DNA from: Bradymonadia bacterium
GTDB taxonomy: Bacteria > Myxococcota_A > Bradymonadia > UBA7976 > UBA1532
Direction of reading: 5' to 3'
NCBI GenBank assembly: GCA_046290225.1
Contig: JBKAGE010000071.1
Location: 1 to 64,000 of the forward strand
Length of the DNA: 64,000 bases
Made by a program: the position numbers and the translations under genes
Shown: piece by piece, positions 2,588 to 60,746 of the stretch
Position numbering within the stretch: position 1 is the stretch's first letter
Layout of the letters: each line of letters begins with the position of its first letter
Notes under the pieces: model-generated
The model's input: only the letters and a program-made list of their open reading frames with translations
The model's database searches: none
What the model was told of the DNA's origin: nothing

Positions 2588-4171
2588 TCACGCCCGCAAC
2601 ACGGTGACCGGGCGCCCGCTGGGGGTCACGTGCGATTCGAAGCGAGTGCGGTCGAATACATCCGCCGCATCGTCGCGCATATCGAAGATGACCAGCCAGC
2701 CTGAGTCGAGCTGCACCCGGCCCAGGTACTCATCCAGCTGGGCCAAACCGCGCGCCAATGGATCACCCTGGCGATCACCTGTGGCCCAGCGTTTGAGCTC
2801 GATGGCTTCACGCTGCACCTGGCGGCCGTCCGGAGCGTCGTAGGGCCAGCGGAGCAGCAGATCGATGCGGCCTCGGCCGATGCCGTACTCGCGGTCGATG
2901 GTGCCGCCGCCGTTCACCACACGCTGCAGGAACGCCATCATCACGATTTGCGCTGTGGCCTCGGGGTATGTTTGCCCTGGTCTAGCCATAGCTTCGCCAT
3001 GCTCCATCCAGAAGTCGGCAAAGGCCTGCATGGCGGCGGGCATGTCGAAGCGCCCGTCGCTCAGCACAAAGCGCGCAGGCTCGGCCTGGATTCGGGGGGT
3101 ATAGTTCGACGCCAGGGCCCGGACCATGACCTCACGATAGATGGGGTTCGCGGGTCGCACTGGTGGATCACGGGTGATGAGACCCAGATCTGCCACATAG
3201 CCCACGTCATCGTTGTATGTCATGTCCGAGGTCGTCTGTGTGTGTCTGCCAGAGATGAGCGGCTCGAGCACACGCCGCACCGGAGGCTCGTTGAGCTTCG
3301 ACACCAGCGAGTCGAGGTGGGTGGCCCTCGCCAGAATCAGCCGCTCTTTCGCGCGCTCGATGTGCTCCACAGTGATCGCCTCGGTGACCTGCATCTGGTC
3401 GATCACTTCGGCGGCGAGGCTGTTGACCAGCCACGGCTGACCTTGCGTCAGCTCGAAGGCCCGCAGCTTGGCGTCGTCAGTGAAGACTTGCCCGGTGGCT
3501 TCAGTGTGCTGTGTGTAGAGAGTGGCCACCTCTTCGGTGGTGAAATTGCCCATGGTGAGCGACCCGACCTTGATGTTGAACGGGCTCGCCGTGCCCATTC
3601 GCTCGCTGCCTCCGCTCGTCTTTTTGTAATCGCGTACGTCTCGCAGTCCGCACAGGACCACCGACCACGGCGCGTGCCCTGGCCGGTTCGAAAACCCCGC
3701 CCGCAACTGCCGCAGAATCCCGTTCAGCGCCTGCCCCATGAGCGCGTCTATCTCGTCAAAGAACAGCACCAGCGGCTTCGGGCAGGCCTCAGCCCATCGC
3801 TCCAGCGCGCTCTGCAGCAGCAGCGTCGAGCTGTCAGCGAAGCCCTCGGGGGGCCTCAACTCTGGCGCCAACTCGCGTCGCGCCTCCAGCAACATGCTCT
3901 TGAGCACATGACGCTGCGCCTCCGTGGGATCATCAGGCCACGCCGCTGCCGCCTCACAGGAGAAGTAGAGCGCCGCATATTCACCTGCGGCGGTCATCTC
4001 CCGCGCCACCGCTTTGAGGCTCGTGGTTTTACCGCACTGTCTCGGGGCGTGCACCACCATGTACTGGCCACGCCTCACGTAAGGGTGAATCCCCGCCAGC
4101 CTCGGCGCCGGCGGCAGCGTGTAGTGCATTGATTCTACGCAGGGCCCCGTCGTATTGAAGAATCGCTCCAT
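2588..4171 (-). CDS. AAA-like ATPase with a C-terminal PD-(D/E)XK-like domain, paralogue 1
   Basis: Start MERFFNTTGPC; Walker A HAPRQCGKTT; Walker B LFFDEID; C-terminal EYGIGRGRIDL...IELKRW...QLDEY. Confidence 0.88.
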   Translation of the reverse strand: MERFFNTTGPCVESMHYTLPPAPRLAGIHPYVRRGQYMVVHAPRQCGKTTSLKAVAREMTAAGEYAALYFSCEAAAAWPDDPTEAQRHVLKSMLLEARRELAPELRPPEGFADSSTLLLQSALERWAEACPKPLVLFFDEIDALMGQALNGILRQLRAGFSNRPGHAPWSVVLCGLRDVRDYKKTSGGSERMGTASPFNIKVGSLTMGNFTTEEVATLYTQHTEATGQVFTDDAKLRAFELTQGQPWLVNSLAAEVIDQMQVTEAITVEHIERAKERLILARATHLDSLVSKLNEPPVRRVLEPLISGRHTQTTSDMTYNDDVGYVADLGLITRDPPVRPANPIYREVMVRALASNYTPRIQAEPARFVLSDGRFDMPAAMQAFADFWMEHGEAMARPGQTYPEATAQIVMMAFLQRVVNGGGTIDREYGIGRGRIDLLLRWPYDAPDGRQVQREAIELKRWATGDRQGDPLARGLAQLDEYLGRVQLDSGWLVIFDMRDDAADVFDRTRFESHVTPSGRPVTVLRA

Positions 4172-4262
4172 CTCTTCGCACTCCACAGCGGTCGCTGGCG
4201 CACACTACCATGGCGCTCGGGGTGTGTGATGGGGCAGGTACGCGTCAGCGTAAGTGGGGGAA

Positions 4263-4288
4263 GCCAGGGGCTGCGCCCCCGGATCCCC
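4263..4288 (+). repeat. 28-bp repeat family, copy 3
   Basis: GCCAGGGGCTGCGCCCCCGGATCCCC between the divergent ATPase genes. Confidence 0.85.
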
Positions 4289-4381
4289 ACTCATGCGAGA
4301 TCGGCTGCCCTCGCCTGGACGCCCGGACCATCTCAGCTGTAGGGTCAAGGCCATGAACCTTCGACGAGAGCCCACACCGCA

Positions 4382-5959
4382 ATGAAGAAGCGCTTCAACA
4401 CAGCGGGGCCATGCAATGGCCAGCGTCACTACATGCTGCCCGCCGTGCCGCGTCTGCCGCAGCTGCCCGAGCTGATCGAGACTGGGGCTTACTTCGTCGT
4501 GCACGCCCCTCGCCAGACCGGCAAGACCACTCTGCTCAAACACATCGCTCGACAGGTGAACGCAGAGGGCGAGATGACAGCCGTCCACTTCTCGTGTGAG
4601 GCCGGCGAGGCCGCAGGCGACGACTACGTGGCTGCACAGCGATCTGTCATCTACGCCATGGTCACTGCGAGTCAAATGACCCTGCCGGAGGCTGAGCGAC
4701 CCCCCAGCGAGTTCGAGGAAGGGCCGGAGACGGACCTCTTGGCCGCCTTCTTGAGGGCATGGTCGGCCAGCTGTCCAAAGCCACTGGTGTTGCTCTTCGA
4801 CGAGATCGACGCACTGCGAGGTCAGAGTCTCATCTCAGTGCTGCGCCAGCTTCGGGCGGGGTACGATCATCGGCCCGACCATGCGCCCTGGTCAGTGGCG
4901 TTGTGTGGGCTCAGAGATGTGCGTGACTACAAAGCTGCCAGCGGGGGCGATGCTTCACGACTGGGCACATCAAGCCCATTCAATGTCAAAGTCGAGTCAT
5001 TGGCGCTCGGTAACTTCACCGCTGAGCAGGTCGCGACGCTCTACACACAGCACACTGAGGCCTCTGGACAGGCCTTCGAAGAAGCCGCGATCGAACGGGC
5101 CTTCGAGTTGACTCAAGGCCAACCATGGTTGGTGAACAGCCTCGCTGCCGAAGTGCTCTACAAAATGAAGGTGGTCGACACCATCACGACCAAACACATC
5201 GAGCAGGCGAAAGAGCAGCTCATTCTGGCCAGAGCCACCCATCTCGATTCGCTGATCGCCCGGCTGCATGAGCCGGCGGTTCGGCGGATTCTAGCGCCTC
5301 TGCTCGCAGAGAAAGATGACGGGGTCCCCAACGACCTGACCTACAACGACGACTTCAGCTATGTGCGTGATCTGGGCCTCGTCGCCCGAGATTATCCCGT
5401 GCGGCCGGCGAACCCGATCTATCGCGAGGTCATCGTGCGTGGCCTCACAGCGAACTACGAGCCCCAGATCGTGGTGGAGCCGGCGCGCTTCGTGATGGGT
5501 GACGGGCGCTTCGACATGCCCGCGGCGATGCAGGCCTTCGGTGACTTCTGGCGCCGGCATGGCAGAGGGCTCACTCAACGTGGGGTGACCTACCCTGAAG
5601 CGACGCCGCATATCGTGCTTATGGCGTTTCTACACCGTGTGGTGAACGGTGGCGGCTTCATCGATCGCGAATATGGCCTCGATCGTGGCGCCATCGATCT
5701 CTACATCCGCTGGCCGATTGATGGTGACAGCCGAGACCTGCAGCACGAGGTGGTGGAGATCAAACGCTGGGCCACTCGGGGCAACCCACTGAACGAAGGC
5801 CTCGAGCAAATCGAGCGCTATCTGACAGCCCTGGGCCTCGATTCCGGTTGGTTGGTCATCTTCGACCAGCGCCAGTCTGCCCTCGCCGACATCCCTCAAA
5901 TTCGCTTCGAAGAGCACACCACGCCCAATGGGCTCACCGCACATCTCATGTGGGCGTGA
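4382..5959 (+). CDS. AAA-like ATPase with a C-terminal PD-(D/E)XK-like domain, paralogue 2
   Basis: HAPRQTGKTT, LLFDEID, EYGLDRGAIDL...VEIKRW...QIERY; colinear with paralogue 1. Confidence 0.88.
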   Translation: MKKRFNTAGPCNGQRHYMLPAVPRLPQLPELIETGAYFVVHAPRQTGKTTLLKHIARQVNAEGEMTAVHFSCEAGEAAGDDYVAAQRSVIYAMVTASQMTLPEAERPPSEFEEGPETDLLAAFLRAWSASCPKPLVLLFDEIDALRGQSLISVLRQLRAGYDHRPDHAPWSVALCGLRDVRDYKAASGGDASRLGTSSPFNVKVESLALGNFTAEQVATLYTQHTEASGQAFEEAAIERAFELTQGQPWLVNSLAAEVLYKMKVVDTITTKHIEQAKEQLILARATHLDSLIARLHEPAVRRILAPLLAEKDDGVPNDLTYNDDFSYVRDLGLVARDYPVRPANPIYREVIVRGLTANYEPQIVVEPARFVMGDGRFDMPAAMQAFGDFWRRHGRGLTQRGVTYPEATPHIVLMAFLHRVVNGGGFIDREYGLDRGAIDLYIRWPIDGDSRDLQHEVVEIKRWATRGNPLNEGLEQIERYLTALGLDSGWLVIFDQRQSALADIPQIRFEEHTTPNGLTAHLMWA

Positions 5960-7330: not shown

Positions 7331-7680
7331 TGAGAGGTTGGGGGGCGCTCCGCGGGTAAGAGAGTTTTTCGGGCACGGGCACGGGCACGGGCACGGGCAC
7401 GAGTTGATACGTACCTGGACCCGTGGCCCTGCATGGCTCCGCTCGTGGGTTTTGACGGTGGGTGCTCTACTTGGCCCTGTGCTCCTCTCAGCGAAGGCTC
7501 TTGACCTCCATACACCCCAAGACTTGAAACCTCAGGTCGTTCTGAAGCGCACCATCTCAGCCTCAATGACAACCATCGCCCTGAATCCAGGATAGGCCAT
7601 GGGTCCGCGTATGTATCAACTCGTGCCCGTGCCCGTGCCCGAAAAACTCTCTTACCCGCGGAGCGCCCCCCAGCCTCTCA
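7331..7680. repeat. long inverted-repeat element with GGGCAC tandem repeats (MITE/REPIN-like)
   Basis: Arms 7331-7427 and 7596-7680 are near-perfect reverse complements; 5 versus 3 GGGCAC units. Confidence 0.9.
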
Positions 7681-31476: not shown

Positions 31477-31488
31477 GGTTCGCTGGGC

Positions 31489-31942
31489 CTGAGCGGACGG
31501 CCGTGCTCGCGCCTGTGGCGGACGACCCAGCAAAAGCTTTCGCTTCGCTGCGTCTGTAGCGGACGGTCATCGCCTTTGGCGACAGCCTGTAGCGGACGCC
31601 TCGCCTTTGGCGAGAGCTGTAGCGGACGCTCATTTGCCTTCGGCAAATTCCCTGTAGCTTTTTTGAAGATCAGTTGAGGGGGGTGTGTGTGGGTTCATCT
31701 ACCGCAAACACGGTTGGCCCCTGACGCACCAGTTCTGGCGTAAGCCCCTACCTGGATCGAGAAACCCACCAGGCACACCAAAAGTCTCTTAGAAAGCTAC
31801 AGCTCAGGCTGCCGAAGGCAGACTCGGCGTCCGCTACAGCTCTGGACCAGCGCAGCTGGTTCAGGCGTCCGCTACAGGCGGTGCGCAGCACGGCCGTCCG
31901 CAACAGACGCAGCGAAGCGAAAGCTTTTGCTGGGTCGTCCGC
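31489..31942. repeat. inverted pair of arrays of CTGTAGCGGACG units separated by variable mini-hairpins (REP/BIME-like)
   Basis: Arms 31518-31661 and 31793-31942; about 47-bp outer inverted repeat with 1 mismatch; lies between convergent genes. Confidence 0.9.
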
Positions 31943-31948
31943 TCCCAT

Positions 31949-32920
31949 TCAGACAAAGCGGTTCATCTCTTTGACCCCGTCAGAAGACTGGTCATCCGAG
32001 AACTGGTACTCCGGATCGAGCAGATCGTTGATGCGATCCATCATCAGATCAGTGAGGCCACGGAACTTGTCGCCATGCTTCTCCTTCGCCGCGGGGCTGA
32101 AGGGGACGAAGGGCTCGTGCACGCGGAACTGAGCGAGATCTTCCGAGTCGAGCTTCATGGGCTCACCGATGCGGTAGTGCACCGTGCCCCCCTTGGAGAA
32201 GGGCGAGTTCCCCGGGTACAGCTTGTCGCTGCCGTTACAGCCCACAGGTACAATGTCGGCATTGAGATGCTGGGCCATCTGAACGAGGCCGATCTGACCC
32301 CGCGACAGCCTGATCGAGCGGGTGCCCTGAGGAAACACGAGCAGGTAGAGCCCCAGCTGGAAAGCCCGCTGGTTGAGGCGGGTCACCTCCTCGATCATCC
32401 GCGACCACAGATCCTCGAACCACACCTTGAAGGCTTCTGGCCCACCGTGAGCGTTGACGAAGCGCCTCGCCATGGAGGTGAAGTCGCCGTCCCAGGCGCC
32501 CTCGTCGACGAGGGTGCGCAGCGAGCGATACTCATCGCTCTCCGGCGGGCGCTCGGCGATCCGGCGAAATTCGGTGGTGATCACATAGCCACGCGAGGGC
32601 AGGGGAATCCCGTTACAGGCGCTCAGGAACGACGCCATGACCTTGTTCTCGTAGTACTTGCCCTTCACCCAGGTGGCGGTGAGCCCTTTCTTCTGCATGT
32701 GCAGCCCGAGCTGAAGTGGCCAGTAGTTGAAGCGGTCGGTGTGGTTCATCGCCAGGATGATCGGGCGCCCTGGAGGCGGCAGACGCTCCAGGTGTTCGAA
32801 CGTTACCTTGGTCTTCTTGGGGATCCTGTGGTCGACGTGGCGCAGGAAGCGCCCCACGAGCCGCATGAACTTGGCGTCTCCAGTGAGCTTCACTGTGCGC
32901 AGGTAGTCAGGATCGATCAT
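31949..32920 (-). CDS. PlsC-like lysophospholipid acyltransferase
   Basis: ILAMNHTDRFN, LVFPQGTRS, IVPVGCNG. Confidence 0.8.
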   Translation of the reverse strand: MIDPDYLRTVKLTGDAKFMRLVGRFLRHVDHRIPKKTKVTFEHLERLPPPGRPIILAMNHTDRFNYWPLQLGLHMQKKGLTATWVKGKYYENKVMASFLSACNGIPLPSRGYVITTEFRRIAERPPESDEYRSLRTLVDEGAWDGDFTSMARRFVNAHGGPEAFKVWFEDLWSRMIEEVTRLNQRAFQLGLYLLVFPQGTRSIRLSRGQIGLVQMAQHLNADIVPVGCNGSDKLYPGNSPFSKGGTVHYRIGEPMKLDSEDLAQFRVHEPFVPFSPAAKEKHGDKFRGLTDLMMDRINDLLDPEYQFSDDQSSDGVKEMNRFV

Positions 32921-36586: not shown

Positions 36587-36635
36587 GGGCTGAGAGTCTC
36601 CCGAGCGTGTGGAAAAAGAGATGGGCTCCGACCCA

Positions 36636-36876
36636 TAGAGCGTTATGCGGAAGAAACTGACGGAGCAGGCGAAGAACATCGGCGAGAGGTCGAAGGAAGA
36701 AAGCGCAGGGAGCCTGTCTGGTCTGAGGCCAGACGCTTCGGAGCCGACAGAGGCGAAGCCGGCGGAGCGCAGAAGCGCCCGCAGGGCAGGCTCTGAAGAA
36801 GCACTGAGCATTTCTGAGTTTGAGATCTCGTCGATGGGCAAGTCTGGTGTGGCAGTTTCTTCCTTATAACGCTCTA
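36636..36876. mobile_element. 241-bp MITE-like element with 24-bp terminal inverted repeats
   Basis: TAGAGCGTTATGCGGAAGAAACTG / CAGTTTCTTCCTTATAACGCTCTA (2 mismatches); TA at both ends. Confidence 0.7.
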
Positions 36877-36975
36877 ACGGGCGGGCGGATGATCAACTTG
36901 ATGATGGCGAAGATAGGGAAGAGGGGGCAGGCGTCGCCATTTTTATGGCGAATTGTAAGCGGCTTTAAGGCGGGC

Positions 36976-55259: not shown

Positions 55260-55328
55260 AGATTGAAGTCCTTTTGGTCTCGGAGGCCATGTAGTATATC
55301 CCCCCATCCCCATACGAAGGAGCGCATC

Positions 55329-56753
55329 ATGCGTCGAGTCGATCTCGCCCTCCTCGGGCTGCTGTCGGTGGCCGGCTGTGGCACCGCCGAAGAGACCCAG
55401 GCCCCCGACGAAACGAGCGATGTCGACGAGCGACGCGACTCCGAGTCCGGGCAGTTCCTTCGTGATGGCAAGACCGACAGCAACGGCGTCGAGGAGCGCA
55501 GCTGGTCTGCTCAGTGCGTGCTCAACGTGGCCAACGAGGCCACCCTCGAGCAGCTCGATGACGACATGTCGCTCTGGAGCTTCGCCGCACAAAACATCGT
55601 CGACGGTCGTCCCTACGGCACCATCGAAGAGGTGGACGATGTGAGCTGGGTCGGCCCCTACGCCTTCTGGCAGATGGAAGCCTTCGCCGAGAAGAACGAG
55701 CTCTGCCCCGGTCTTGGTGAAGAGTACCCCCCTGCAGGAGAGGTCGACGCCATTCTGGCTGTGACCCAGGCCAGCGTCGATCACGTGAACAAGAAGTGGG
55801 GCGAAGGCGAGCGCCCCTCGCGGCGTGACGCCCACCCCAAGGCCCACGGCTGCGTGAAGGCTTTCTTCGAGGTGGAGCACGAGGCCGACGTGCCCGAGAG
55901 CATGAAGGTGGGCGTCTTCGCCGAAGAAGGCACCCGCTACCCTGCCTGGATCCGCTTCAGCAACGGCTCCTTCACCATCTCGCCTGATCCCGAGGGCGAC
56001 ATCCGGGGCATGGCCATCAAGCTCATGCAGGTCCCCGGCGACAAGGTGCTCGAAGCAGAGAAGGACGCGCCGACTCAGGACTTCCTGCTCATCAACACCC
56101 CGGTGTTGATGGTGCGCAACGCCATCGATTACGTCGAGTTCTCCCAGAAGGCGTTCGACGGCAACCCGGTGAGCTTCTTCTTCGATCTCAACCCCCTCGA
56201 GTGGAACATGAGGGAGCTGTGGATCACCATCTCGACCCTGGGCAAAGACATCGCCAGCCCGCTGCTCTCGCGCTACTGGAGCACCACCCCCTACCAGCTC
56301 GGTGACGCCCACGCGGTGAAGTACAGCGCCCGACCCTGTGGTGGTGAATCCGACGAAGAGCCGAAGGATGCCGGTGACAACTACCTGTCCGAGGTCCTCG
56401 CTGATCACCTCGCCGAGAACGAGGCCTGCTTCGAGTTCCTGGTCCAGGTGCAGACCGACGCTGAAGAGATGCCCATCGAGGATCCGAGCTTGGAGTGGGA
56501 CGACGATGACTCGCCCTACCTGAAGGTGGCCACGATCAAGATCCCCAGCCAGACCTTCCTGGGAGATGCTCAGAAAGACTTCTGCGAGCACCTGTCGTAC
56601 AACCCCTGGCACACCCTGCCGGAGCACACCCCCCTCGGTGGTATCAACCGCACCCGCAAGGTGGTGTACGATGCCATCTCGGCCCTGCGTCACGGGTACA
56701 ACGAGCAGCCCCGCATCGAGCCCAACAGCCACGAGATCCCCGCGCTCGACTGA
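55329..56753 (+). CDS. catalase-like haem protein, lipoprotein, with an N-terminal HhH-like domain
   Basis: RRDAHPKAHG, RFSNG, RGMAIKL, QDFLLIN, PLGGINRTRKVVY; lipobox VAGC. Confidence 0.88.
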   Translation: MRRVDLALLGLLSVAGCGTAEETQAPDETSDVDERRDSESGQFLRDGKTDSNGVEERSWSAQCVLNVANEATLEQLDDDMSLWSFAAQNIVDGRPYGTIEEVDDVSWVGPYAFWQMEAFAEKNELCPGLGEEYPPAGEVDAILAVTQASVDHVNKKWGEGERPSRRDAHPKAHGCVKAFFEVEHEADVPESMKVGVFAEEGTRYPAWIRFSNGSFTISPDPEGDIRGMAIKLMQVPGDKVLEAEKDAPTQDFLLINTPVLMVRNAIDYVEFSQKAFDGNPVSFFFDLNPLEWNMRELWITISTLGKDIASPLLSRYWSTTPYQLGDAHAVKYSARPCGGESDEEPKDAGDNYLSEVLADHLAENEACFEFLVQVQTDAEEMPIEDPSLEWDDDDSPYLKVATIKIPSQTFLGDAQKDFCEHLSYNPWHTLPEHTPLGGINRTRKVVYDAISALRHGYNEQPRIEPNSHEIPALD

Positions 56754-56782: not shown

Positions 56783-57304
56783 CTCTGAGCGTTGTGGCTA
56801 GGCCCTTGTAGGCAGTCATCGCTTCGCTCTGCCTGCGTAGGCGCCACGCCTTCGGCACATCTTCGATGCGCCTCGTCGGTCGCGTACACGTCGGCGTACT
56901 CGCTGGCGCGAGCAGGCCTCCGGGTAGGCAGGGTCGCTCAATGCTGACGCATTGGTTGCTCGCTCCCCTGCGTAAAGAGCCAGTTCTGGTGTGGCTCTGT
57001 GCTGCTGCCAACGCTGTTGGGGCTTACGCTTGGCGTTGAGACTCAGAGGCCTGCACGTTCGCGGTAGGTCGAATCCCGGTGGGGTTCAGCAACAAGATAC
57101 AGAAGAAGCTCTTTACGCAGGGGAGCGAGCAAACAAGGCGAAGCCTTGAGCGACCCTGCCTACCCGGGAAGGTGCCTGCCTCAGCAGGTGCCTGAACGTG
57201 TACGCGACCGACGAGGCGGCCCGAAGGGCTGCCGAAGGCCGGACGCCTACGCAGGCGGAGCGAAGCGACGGCTGCCTACCAGGGCCCAGCCACAACGCTC
57301 AGAG
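56783..57304. repeat. ~200-bp inverted repeat pair with structure-conserving variable hairpins
   Basis: Arms 56783-56980 and 57108-57304; lies between convergent genes. Confidence 0.92.
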
Positions 57305-57336: not shown

Positions 57337-60222
57337 TCAGCGGCAGCAGACAACCGGCAGATCCCGGTTGCATGCCTGGTTCAGCAGGAAGGTGTGATAG
57401 TCACCCGACAACATGTTCCCGCTGAGGACGATGTTGCTGAATCGGACAGCGCTGCCTCGCGCGACATCTGCGCTGCTGTAGCGGAGGTTCCAGCAGTTGC
57501 TCGAGCCCGTAAGGTTGGCGTTGTTGCCACTGGAGCTGTGGAAGACCGTCCACATGTCCTGACCGATGAGCGCGTTGCTGTCGTAGTTCCCGCTGGCCAT
57601 GGCCCGCTCGATCTCCCCCTGAGTGCACAGGTGGGCCGTGGGCTCGTTGCCATAGGTAGACCGGCACATGGCGTCTGCACCAGCAGTCCCGAGTTGACCG
57701 CCAAAGTTGATCGCGCCTCTGGTGGTCGTCGCCGAGGCGCCAAGGATGACACCAGTCAAGCCGGCCGCTGAGCCATCCGCACCGTCTGCCCCATCCGCGC
57801 CGTCAGCCCCATCGGCCACCTCGACGGCGTTGTTGCCACACGTGATGACCGCGCCGTCGTCGTTGGCGTTGCGGGCCACCGTGCAGTTCACACCATCGGT
57901 GATGTTCACCGTGTCGTTGCCACAGGTGAGGGTGGTGACGTTGCCGTTCTTGGACACCGAGCACGAGTTGATGTTGTCCACCCGACCCTCGAGCAGGCTG
58001 AGGCGGTTCGCGAGGTTGTTGACGTCGATACGAGACGCGTAGTTCTCGTCCACCAGATCCATCAGGGCGATGAGATCATCCTGCGTGGCCATGTTGTTCT
58101 CGATGGCTGTTACGCGGGCATCGATGGCCGTCACGTTGTTGTTTACCCCCGTGATGAGCGTGTTCAGCTCGTTCTTGGTGGCGTAGGTCTCGTCCACCAG
58201 ATCGATCACCGCGTCGAGATCACCATTGGTGGCCGAGGTGTTCTCCAGATTGCTCAGGCGGTTGTTGATGGTGTTGATTTGGTTGTTGATGGCCGTGATC
58301 TGGGTGTTGAACTGGTCGAGATCGTTCTGGGTCAGGAAGCCAGCGTTCTCGAGGCCCTCAATCCGGGTGGTCAAGTCTGCCACGGCGTTGTTGAGGCCCG
58401 CGAGATCGGCATCAGTGAGGAAGCCAGCGTTCTCGAGGGCGCCCACGCGATCGGTGAGGGTGTCCACGGCGCCGCTCAGTGCGCTCAGGGCGTCTGCATC
58501 AGCAAAGTTGGCGTTCTCGATGACCGAGACACGGGCCGAGACGGCGTCGACGGCGGTGCTCAAGCCTTCGAGATCGTCCCGGGTCGCAAAGAAGCTCGAG
58601 TCGAGCCCATCCAGACGATCTGCGTCGAGCCCGGAGTTGGTCCCGTCGACTGTGATCAACTTGGCCAGCACCTGAGCAGGCGTGTCGGAGCCACCCTGGC
58701 CGTTGAGCACTGTGGCAGAGCTGCCGTCGGTGCAGTTGATGGTGGCGAAGCCGTCACCCTGCACCACAGAGCAGGAGTTGCCGTTGGAGCCGGGGGCGCC
58801 AGGGGCACCGTTGGTCAGGCGGGCCGTGGTACCGTCGGTGCAGTTGATGGTGGCAAAGCCGTCACCCTGAGCCACCGAGCAGCTGGAGCCATCAGTGCCC
58901 CGGAGTTGCTCGGCGTAATCTTCCACCAGCAAGGCGACCAGATCGTTGCGGAAAGAAGGGCTGTTGGCGAGGCGCGAGGCCACGTCGGCAGGATCAGCGT
59001 CGACGCCATCACGACCGTTGGTGCCGTTCACACCAGGCTGCCCGTCCCGGCCGTTGGTGCCGTTGAACACCTGGGCCGTGGTGCCATCCTCGCAGGAGAC
59101 AGTGGCGAAGCCATTGCCCTGAGCCACCGTACAGTCAGTGCCGTTGGTACCATCCGCACCATCCGCGCCATTCTGGCCGGCAGGGCCAGTGGGGCCCACC
59201 TCACCGCGGAGCACGTCGGAGAACTGATCCACCAGCTGGTTGGCGATCTCGTCCCGGAAGTTCTCGTTCACCACCAGCAGGCCCGCGACCAGATCGGGAT
59301 CTGCGTCCTCACCAGAGGGGCCCTGGGGACCCTGGGGGCCTTGGATGCCAGCGATGCCCTGGGGACCCTGGAGGCCTTGAGGGCCTTGCAGACCCTGAGG
59401 GCCAACCTCACCCTGTGGGCCCACGAGACCCTGGGGTCCGATGTTGCCTTGAGGGCCTGCAAGACCCTGGAGGCCCTGAGGACCCTGCTCACCTTGAGGG
59501 CCGACATCACCTTGAGGACCCTGAAGGCCCTGCTCACCACGGGGGCCCGCAGAGCCCTGGATGCCCTGCTCACCCTGAGGGCCAGCCTCACCCTGTGGGC
59601 CCTGCTCACCCTGAGGGCCTTGGTCGCCCTTGAGGGCGTCACCGTAATTCTCGGCGAGCAGCTGGACCACAGCGTTGCGGAAGGTCTCGTTGTCGAGCAA
59701 CGAGTCGGCCACATCGTTCACCGAAGGCGCCAGGTCGAGGGCGTCGCCCACCCACTTGCCGTCCTCGTCGATGACCAGCTGCCCGTTCACCGAGATGGTG
59801 CGGGGGGTCAGATCACCGGTGGCGTTGTCGGACTCCGCCGCTTTGAAGGCGTAGGGCACGCTGTTGATGGTCAGACGGGGCTCGAGCTCCTCGTCATCAC
59901 CTACGGTGACGCCCAGGGACATGCCTTCTCCACCGAAGACCTGCGGAGGCAGCTCGCTCTTCTCCCCGAGGGTGACCGCGTAGTAGCCGTTGTCGAACTC
60001 CACGGGGAACGTCTCCGACCAGACCGGCTCCCCAGCGCTGTCGTAAAGGGTGAAGGTCATCTCCTGAGCCCCTTCGATGGGCTTGAGAGAATCAGTGTCG
60101 AGGATACGCCCTTGCTGAGACAGGTAGCGGGGTACCTCTGCGCTCACCGATGTGGCCGTCAGAGACATCAGAGCAGCGGCGAGCCAGGCCATGGGCCGGC
60201 GGCTGAGGCGTGTACGGTACAT
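57337..60222 (-). CDS. secreted collagen-like trimeric fibre protein (alternative GTG start at 60303)
   Basis: Signal peptide; QGRI...FTLYD...W.E...GYYAVTLG N-domain; Gly-X-Y runs; coiled coil; C-terminal GADAMC...LPVVCC head. Confidence 0.88.
59305..59628 (-). repeat. 36 uninterrupted Gly-X-Y triplets, GPQ-rich
   Basis: Counted from GDQ to GED in the translation. Confidence 0.95.
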
Positions 60223-60299
60223 GTCGGAGGCTCCCCTCGTCTTCGAATGAGCGGTCGATTGGTCTGTGGTGTTCTGGGTCTTGGATGCGCGGGAGAAGA

Positions 60300-60746
60300 T
60301 CACTGCTGACCTCCTCGCACGACGCTGAGGGTGCCCGTCTGGAGCACGTGGCGATCAGAGGTGGCCGTGGCGCCGCTCACGCTCACCGGCGAGAGCACGC
60401 CGATGGCGGTGTGTCGGGGGGAGGCCATGGCTGCGCAGCCAGAGCAGAGCCCGTGCACACTCAACGGACCCGCTGCGACACACGTCTGTGCTTCTTCGTC
60501 GCAGACCTCGCCGTCACCACAGGGACCGCAGCCTTCTCTCACCAGGCAGTCCTCACTGCACCGGCCTTCTTCCTCTGCATCGCAGACGCCGTCGCCGCAG
60601 ATCACCAGATCACTGCCGCCAGCGCCGCTGCTGCCGCCGCCTCCGTTCGCAGCGTCGTCACAGGCGGCGAGCGCTGCGGCGAGGCAAAACATCGTCAGCC
60701 ATGACCCGCTGGTCGTGAGCAGACGAAGACTTCCAGGCTGTCTCAT
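60300..60746 (-). CDS. small Cys-rich lipoprotein upstream of the fibre gene
   Basis: GGAGG SD; lipobox LAAC; CGDGVC...CSEDC. Confidence 0.7.

Follow-up and report, generated by a model that had tools for sequence, protein, structure and literature searches.

A dispersed population of large fold-back elements with conserved hairpins and a REPIN/BIME-like organisation in a Bradymonadia genome

The 522-bp fold-back element at positions 56783-57304 of the window (the whole stretch of 64,000 nucleotides analysed here, from the genome assembly of a Bradymonadia bacterium) belongs to a dispersed, structured and recombining repeat population. It had been put forward as a single new system; instead, it is one of 36 full copies, organised in the manner of REP dimers, REPINs and BIMEs. 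The reading that we prefer, and to which we give an even chance of being right, is that of a large, REPIN/BIME-like element that is not autonomous and acts in the form of single-stranded DNA; its RAYT-type transposase would have been lost or left unassembled and its copies would be reshuffled by conversion. Its unusual points are the missing RAYT, a centre shared with another repeat family and a link to genes for four-helix-bundle proteins.

Each arm of the element is composed of a terminal segment followed by hairpin units headed by GTAG or a variant of it, and the two arms enclose an asymmetric core. The parts of the window copy, its neighbouring genes and the sister element discussed below are as follows.

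56783-57304, no strand assigned: whole fold-back element, 1 of 36 full-length copies; family-like sequence may extend to about 57332 on the right
56783-56980, + strand: left arm, with the TTC-loop reading on +; a terminal segment, then four GTAN-headed hairpin units and a closing GTAA
56783-56807, + strand: terminal segment of the left arm, which varies among copies yet is matched between both arms of one copy
56808-56836, + strand: unit 1, with GTAG at the foot of an imperfect hairpin, a GC-GNA-GC mini-hairpin cap (other strand) and a covarying A-T/G-C pair
56837-56883, + strand: unit 2, with GTAG, a basal stem and two hairpins, at 56848-56856 and at 56858-56868 (block A2); alternative basal stems in the alignment
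56884-56923, + strand: unit 3, with a GTAC head and the block B hairpin at 56899-56912
56924-56971, + strand: unit 4, with GTAG, a six-pair basal stem and the block C hairpin at 56939-56954
56978-57111, - strand: asymmetric non-coding core, common to the 31.5-kb family, with one GNNA-type hairpin at 57020-57029 and an internal GTAG at 57064
57107-57304, - strand: right arm, inverted, with different alleles at blocks C (57134-57148), B (57175-57188) and A2 (57219-57229)
55263-56753, + strand: left neighbour gene (context), for a catalase-related protein (PF00199, E 1e-6); its stop codon lies 30 bases before the element
57337-60303, - strand: right neighbour gene (context), for a collagen-repeat protein (PF01391); convergent, its stop codon 33 bases after the element
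31479-31950, no strand assigned: sister element, with unrelated GTAG-headed hairpin arms around a homologous core (31653-31801)

The original prediction described two nearly identical inverted arms of about 198 nucleotides, and both proved to be 198 nucleotides long, with matches in 166/201 aligned columns (83%). Equally accurate were its three blocks in which the sequence is replaced and a hairpin kept (56858-56868 opposite 57219-57229, 56899-56912 opposite 57175-57188, and 56939-56954 opposite 57134-57148) and its count of three GTAGGC per arm (56808, 56837 and 56924; complement at 57158, 57245 and 57274). A stem follows each of the heads, namely GTAG at 56808, 56837 and 56924, GTAC at 56884 and GTAA at 56972, and, as deduced from the alignment, the basal stem of unit 1 has about 4 pairs, that of unit 2 has 6-7 with a mismatch, and that of unit 4 has 6, followed by tandem mismatches. 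Folded as DNA, the whole element reaches -236.7 kcal/mol (z = -23.7), a value that none of 100 shuffles equalled or bettered. The long stem with three four-way junctions, as first proposed, is reproduced for blocks A2 and B, which are predicted to be extruded as four-way junctions, but not for block C, which is paired across the stem. Taken singly, the arms did not exceed shuffled sequences in predicted stability under the nearest-neighbour model (z -0.8 and -0.9), which counts against a REPIN/BIME-like reading; to our knowledge, however, that model takes no account of GNA loops or sheared G.A pairs, and single-arm folding therefore speaks neither for nor against the unit hairpins.

BLAST of the window's genome retrieved 57 loci of the 522-bp family, 36 of them full-length, at 79-88% identity, and copies compared with one another had a median pairwise identity of 85% and a maximum of 97%. 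Searching with an arm profile gave 95 matches, that is 41 inverted pairs and 13 single arms, several of the latter at contig ends; the assembly, with a completeness of 99.4%, is divided into 83 contigs, and several contig ends fall within copies. A core is enclosed by 36 of the 41 pairs, with a gap of 103-107 bases between the profile matches, the others being 3 collapsed pairs, 1 with a small-repeat insert and 1 with a four-helix-bundle gene. None of the 53 loci that could be placed (4/57 at contig ends could not) overlaps a called gene, many copies lie 30-60 bases behind stop codons, and 21/46 longer loci are found between convergent genes versus 960/5832 gene gaps genome-wide (16%), counts that derive from our own crude gene caller and include one locus twice. 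The outer limits at 56783 and 57304 are particular to the window copy, since the ends are ragged across the family. A genome-wide scan for local inverted repeats yielded 192, of which 153 fall in three families (522-bp, 31.5-kb and 7.3-kb types), with some elements counted repeatedly.

Collecting homologues, one of the checks recommended at the outset, led to the 57 loci inside the genome and to none outside it in the sets searched. In 40 relatives there was no real match (one 35-base hit, E 7e-4); a plasmid search gave none and a metagenome search with a 32-base pattern gave 0. A loose pattern in genome contigs returned 85 matches, mostly chance, with one 29-base hit among the 80 fetched, and a viral search returned 84, among which the 80 fetched had no convincing score beyond the pattern itself. 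The core pattern had 2 single matches in 400 phylum genomes, the level of the reversed control, and a core model had 0 in 112 class genomes. The recommended comparison with Rfam gave 0 matches at gathering score in the window, and a tRNA search of the 64-kb window found none.

Selection on secondary structure, which had been suspected from the window copy, is borne out by an alignment of 68 arms from 34/36 full copies (the 2 copies without an anchor were dropped), in which stem and allele counts are counts of sequences rather than independent events and shared descent is ignored. Block A2 occurs as 4 alternative stems, fully paired in 66/68 arms; block B as 3, fully paired in 66/67 arms (one arm with the block deleted was dropped); and block C as 3, fully paired in 65/68 arms. 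Re-dealing the 3' halves left a mean of only 18 (A2), 27 (B) and 22 (C) intact stems. Hairpin breaks were not as frequent as compensation: each block has 3-4 alternative stems that remain intact, against changes that break a stem in 6/203 block observations. Unit 1 contains a covarying pair of positions, 12 bases apart, that reads A-T or G-C in 64/68 arms, with free assortment of the loop base lying between; judging from these sequences, shared descent alone would explain this combination poorly.

The loops point to the kind of nucleic acid in which these stems would be selected. Read on the purine-rich strand, the triloops are GNA in 173/180 cases and the tetraloops GNNA in 78/91 and GNRA in only 17/91; in most alleles, moreover, G.T wobbles extend the stems on the purine-rich strand and not on the other. 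GCGNAGC and GCGNNAGC are described in passages of PMC13037366 as very stable DNA mini-hairpins that are much weaker as RNA. Since GNA/GNNA loops, G.A mismatches and G.T wobbles all occur on one reading, the sequences suggest that the structure is selected in single-stranded DNA and that selection would act on that form of the element. The initial description of a structured ssDNA/RNA element is thereby upheld in its first half and made improbable, by the predominance of GNA/GNNA over GNRA loops, in its second.

The arms are mosaics. We found 48 haplotypes among the 68 arms; A2 and B are linked, most pairs of blocks being at equilibrium. Left and right ends agree throughout the terminal 21 columns in 10/34 copies versus 0.3 expected, and in unit 1 in 12/34 versus 5.0 expected, and non-consensus bases common to both ends number 122 versus 54 in permutations, whereas inner blocks within one copy are no more alike than by chance, block C even somewhat less (p 0.002, six blocks tested). 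The long stem first envisaged is thus matched in sequence at the outer end of a copy and not in its inner blocks. End matching together with inner-block independence indicates that ends are copied from arm to arm and that inner cassettes are exchanged among copies, with template switching and conversion as the probable mechanisms. The profile fades outward over a wide range with no fixed termini, the most conserved parts of the family are internal, and direct repeats in the flanks were no longer than in shuffled pairs. No target duplications are expected from HUH enzymes. Substitutions are ordinary transitions, with A as the least changed base, and the invariant columns carry about 1% private changes.

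The centre of about 130 nucleotides is common to the 522-bp family and to the 31.5-kb family, for which there are 44 loci in the genome and whose arms consist of GTAG-headed units with GNA cassettes of a sequence unlike that of the 522-bp family arms. The original prediction of the same design with a different sequence at 31.5-31.9 kb therefore holds for the design and for the arms, but not for the centres, which are homologous. A profile built from the 522-bp family centre alone had 65 matches (E up to 1), 44 beside its own arms, 1 in a hybrid and 20 between 31.5-kb-family arms (6 of these 20 at E below 0.01), and none elsewhere; a joint core profile recovers 27. The hybrid, at C82:48340-48793, joins one 522-bp-family arm, the core and one 31.5-kb-family arm. 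Consensus structure of the core is weak or none, its orientation to neighbouring genes is indifferent (13 sense, 17 antisense), and comparison with four-helix-bundle and RAYT genes, of which it might have been a remnant, gave no significant match. It is tempting to guess that the core is where both families are recognised or primed. A small repeat (6 loci) is inserted into cores of both families, at C34:360960-361090 and also in C78 and C47.

In the REPIN/BIME-like mechanism that we propose, the structure would be selected in single-stranded DNA, as at the replication fork, and the element would owe its spread to a RAYT-like HUH tyrosine transposase reading GTAG at the hairpin foot, an enzyme that may since have been lost from the lineage or may not have been assembled. 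Recombination between copies would now swap cassettes, fold-back template switching would match the termini, and unlike alleles in opposite arms would keep the palindrome imperfect and may shield the element from palindrome removal. The four-helix-bundle gene would be a lodger in place of the core in one arm pair. BIMEs are mosaic in make-up. The organisation of the element recalls the BIMEs of Escherichia coli, compound extragenic elements made from few REP variants and linkers according to passages of PMC6006769, although the mosaic here is one of single hairpin cassettes in a fixed 500-base frame and the likeness drawn here is one of organisation. It also shares with REPINs and GTAG REP dimers, as far as these are portrayed in parts of PMC3116915, PMC3733652 and PMC6006769, the GTAG-footed imperfect hairpins with heads outward in inverted pairs, the conserved spacer, the extragenic and often convergent sites, the unlike halves, the compensatory changes and the species-specific sequence. 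GTAG at the hairpin foot is the REP/RAYT guide arrangement (PMC6006769, PMC3733652, in part), unlike partners in REP dimers have been described and shielding from palindrome removal suggested for such heterodimers (both in passages of PMC3733652), and compensatory changes are on record for REPINs (PMC3116915, in part).

The REPIN/BIME-like reading rests on copy number and identity together with extragenic and convergent sites; on GTAG at the foot of each unit in the 522-bp and sister families; on loops (GNA and GNNA at the frequencies given) that match the DNA mini-hairpins described in part of PMC13037366; on the lack of an excess of target duplications, as HUH enzymes would give; and on the occurrence of RAYT-like genes in 77/112 class relatives, one of which, G053, has two Y1/RAYT genes with upstream tandem arrays of the same kind of mini-hairpin, one of them GTAG-headed. 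Also in favour of this reading is the precedent, outlined in part of 10.1101/2021.07.10.451892, that REPINs decay over millions of years after losing their RAYT, the copies here having a median identity of 85% and about 1% private changes; the 97% identity of some copies, which may mean recent activity, counts against it. Also against the REPIN/BIME-like reading is the failure to find any RAYT or remnant in an assembly that is 99% complete. Neither PF01797 nor NF047646 matched RAYT/IS200 proteins in the genome (0 matches, with positive controls matching), four profiles built from 60 relatives' proteins found 0 genes or remnants, and none of 64 RAYT loci of relatives carries 522-bp-family arms or core. 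Neither an empty site nor a product of excision came to light. Furthermore, with about 500 bases and four units per arm instead of a doublet, the element is some 4 times the size of a typical REPIN, its basal stems appear short (4-7 pairs, mostly under the fully paired stem of 7-20 pairs reported for REP in passages of PMC6006769; parts of PMC3733652 give 5-13), and two families with unrelated arms have the 130-nt core in common. As a cognate RAYT flanked by the same repeats was not found, we do not file the element as a member of REPIN/BIME.

Three other explanations account for part of these features. The structure might be selected as RNA, in the form of a co-transcribed long stem at 3' ends that would end or stabilise the message or be cut from it by RNase III, as in rRNA intervening sequences (IVSs). 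That many copies stand behind stop codons agrees with this, and C(UUCG)G, an RNA hairpin motif, can be read in some TTC-arm hairpins; PMC4990558 also places four-helix-bundle genes in RNase III-excised IVSs bounded by inverted repeats. The loops, however, fit GNA/GNNA and neither GNRA nor a fixed UUCG, the core is not oriented to genes, Rfam holds no match and the spread would be left unexplained, so that we consider selection as RNA improbable. The dispersed, fixed-length, non-coding, multi-copy units with inverted ends are also what bacterial MITEs look like, here ones with long terminal inverted repeats that a DDE transposase would move, and an IS4-like gene does lie inside one element of the 7.3-kb family. 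This origin is very improbable in our judgement, given that the element has ragged rather than fixed ends, no excess of flanking direct repeats that would signal target duplication and its most conserved parts in the interior, and that no matching DDE transposase goes with it, the IS4-like element being single-copy, with its own ends, and inside another repeat. Retro-copying by a retron reverse transcriptase (RT), for which the proposal made for msDNA-like repeats in Nannocystis (cited in PMC6868368) sets a precedent, deserves hardly any credence. The genome does have two convergent RT genes (L048 and L049) that end two mirror-image gene clusters at C79:171027-192945 and score best with retron models, and a 49-base 522-bp-family remnant lies between them. 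That remnant, though, sits in a convergent gap like many copies, and the strongly folding, msr-msd-type non-coding region that precedes the first RT gene is single-copy and matches neither arm nor core. The substitutions, moreover, are not adenine-biased. A diversity-generating retroelement was also considered and rejected, as there is no adenine-biased mutagenesis (A is the least changed base) and both RTs are retron-like. These were the only two RT genes found, despite a translation at C72:111661-112047 that we take to resemble the 3' end of a group II intron.

A further, RAYT-independent system is possible and yet unlikely: the four-helix-bundle protein would be the cognate partner of the arms, with one gene per repeat family as in RAYT and REP. 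The gene-bearing cassette would then be the parent and the 36 core-bearing copies its gene-less satellites, and a pentamer of the protein would bind the folded strand and recruit a host enzyme for copying or insertion. The genome's only two genes of this kind (PF05635, TIGR02436), whose proteins we take to be akin to Avd, both stand between arms of large repeat families. At C77:107005-107859, two full 522-bp-family arms enclose, in the place of the core, a gene that is broken into two frames; this pair carries alleles of the common pool and is the 1 of 41 with a gene. At C72:82266-83361 an intact gene (82597-82943) lies between arms of the 7.3-kb family. Inspection of enclosed and linked genes, another check named in the original prediction, left this gene as the only ORF between arms, with no RAYT found and the two retron-like RTs elsewhere in the genome; likewise, self-BLAST of 157 gap ORFs beside 327 repeat loci, run without a Pfam scan, gave the two four-helix-bundle genes as the only repeated ORF families. 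These 2/2 cases tell against the REPIN/BIME-like reading, which can explain them only as lodgers. Searches for other candidate enzymes gave 0 DUF559 and GxxExxY nucleases in the genome, 0 IS91 Y2 proteins, with no control genome matching either, and a single GIY-YIG match, at C35:413481; it falls in a frame of 625 residues, and the closest 522-bp-family copy is about 6 kb away. Inverted arms surround 28/48 metagenomic homologues versus 4/48 mismatched pairs (32/80 loci were dropped for short flanks) and, at a loose threshold and without a control, 17/28 four-helix-bundle loci from relatives. Relative G059 has 10 such genes with differing arrays, 7 of them two-sided by BLAST and most, by eye, with GNA hairpin cassettes in the same core-plus-mini-hairpin grammar, and the arms of the 2/10 genes tested both recur at many gene-less places. 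Class-wide, the hairpin-pattern count set against the presence of these genes singled out G059 (67 versus 3), with only 2 in the window genome and 1 in G064 despite its 10 genes. Against a partnership stand the split gene in the 522-bp-family arms, the sister 31.5-kb family, in which no gene-bearing member was found, and the core, which is no recognisable remnant of the gene. The Y1/RAYT genes of G053, moreover, show the same array-promoter-gene layout, so the arms may house any small gene. The nearest solved structure is that of Xcc0516 (2GSC), a pentamer from a family for which passages of PMC4990558 report neither catalytic activity nor function. In the same source, the ORF-bearing 23S rRNA IVS (S23p, PF05635, TIGR02436) has this protein family between inverted repeats, as at C77:107005-107859 only and not in the window copy; the present copies differ in lying between protein genes and not in rRNA, in having 200-base hairpin-array arms with DNA-type loops instead of the 28-pair stem of the IVS, and in that there are 36 gene-less copies for the single gene-bearing one. 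That the four-helix-bundle proteins do for these repeats what RAYT does for REPINs, each gene maintaining its own ssDNA fold-back family with gene-less satellites sharing the 130-nt core and with swaps of cassettes and whole arms (as in the C82 hybrid), is in sum doubtful. Among the papers surveyed, titles and abstract openings made no link of four-helix-bundle genes to dispersed palindromic repeats.

By eye, a T-tract followed by GCAAC or GGAAC, 16-17 bases and CGA or CGT precedes four-helix-bundle and Y1/RAYT genes (loci L027, L041 and L050-L057 of G059, L116 and L120 of G053, and L017), a motif that presumably resembles an ECF-sigma promoter.

A RAYT is generally regarded as necessary to REP-like repeat populations, which would otherwise decay; in the present genome, where no RAYT was found, two GTAG families have kept intact, reshuffled hairpins. 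Were the RAYT merely lost, the family would be a large and well-resolved REPIN variant, its 68 arms offering a natural mutagenesis series for the rules of ssDNA hairpins. If four-helix-bundle proteins did maintain such families, REP-like repeats could arise in a second way that needs no transposase, and a widespread family of orphan proteins would acquire its first function; as a partner, a protein with a solved structure could be tested on defined substrates, namely arm, core and cassette alleles.

Other repeats accompany the family in the window and beyond. A third fold-back family, of about 90-100 loci with tandem six-base arms, is represented at 7331-7680, and a copy of it at C50:55530-57157 has received the single-copy IS4-like element. 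The fourth repeat family, at 36628-36884, has 41-base arms and about 30 loci, and several of the adjoining gaps look tRNA-rich from their translations. A dispersed palindromic family of about 87 loci (C81:47840-47940 and C46:55004-55627) sometimes adjoins truncated 522-bp-family copies. A gene for a BrnT-type toxin (1168-1458, PF04365) and one resembling an HTH antitoxin (878-1177) stand at 835-1573 between 28-base inverted repeats, whose arm occurs at 4 loci in the genome. At 2781-5775, a stretch of about 380 bases and a paralogous one of about 340 lie in inverted orientation and are 73-75% complementary.
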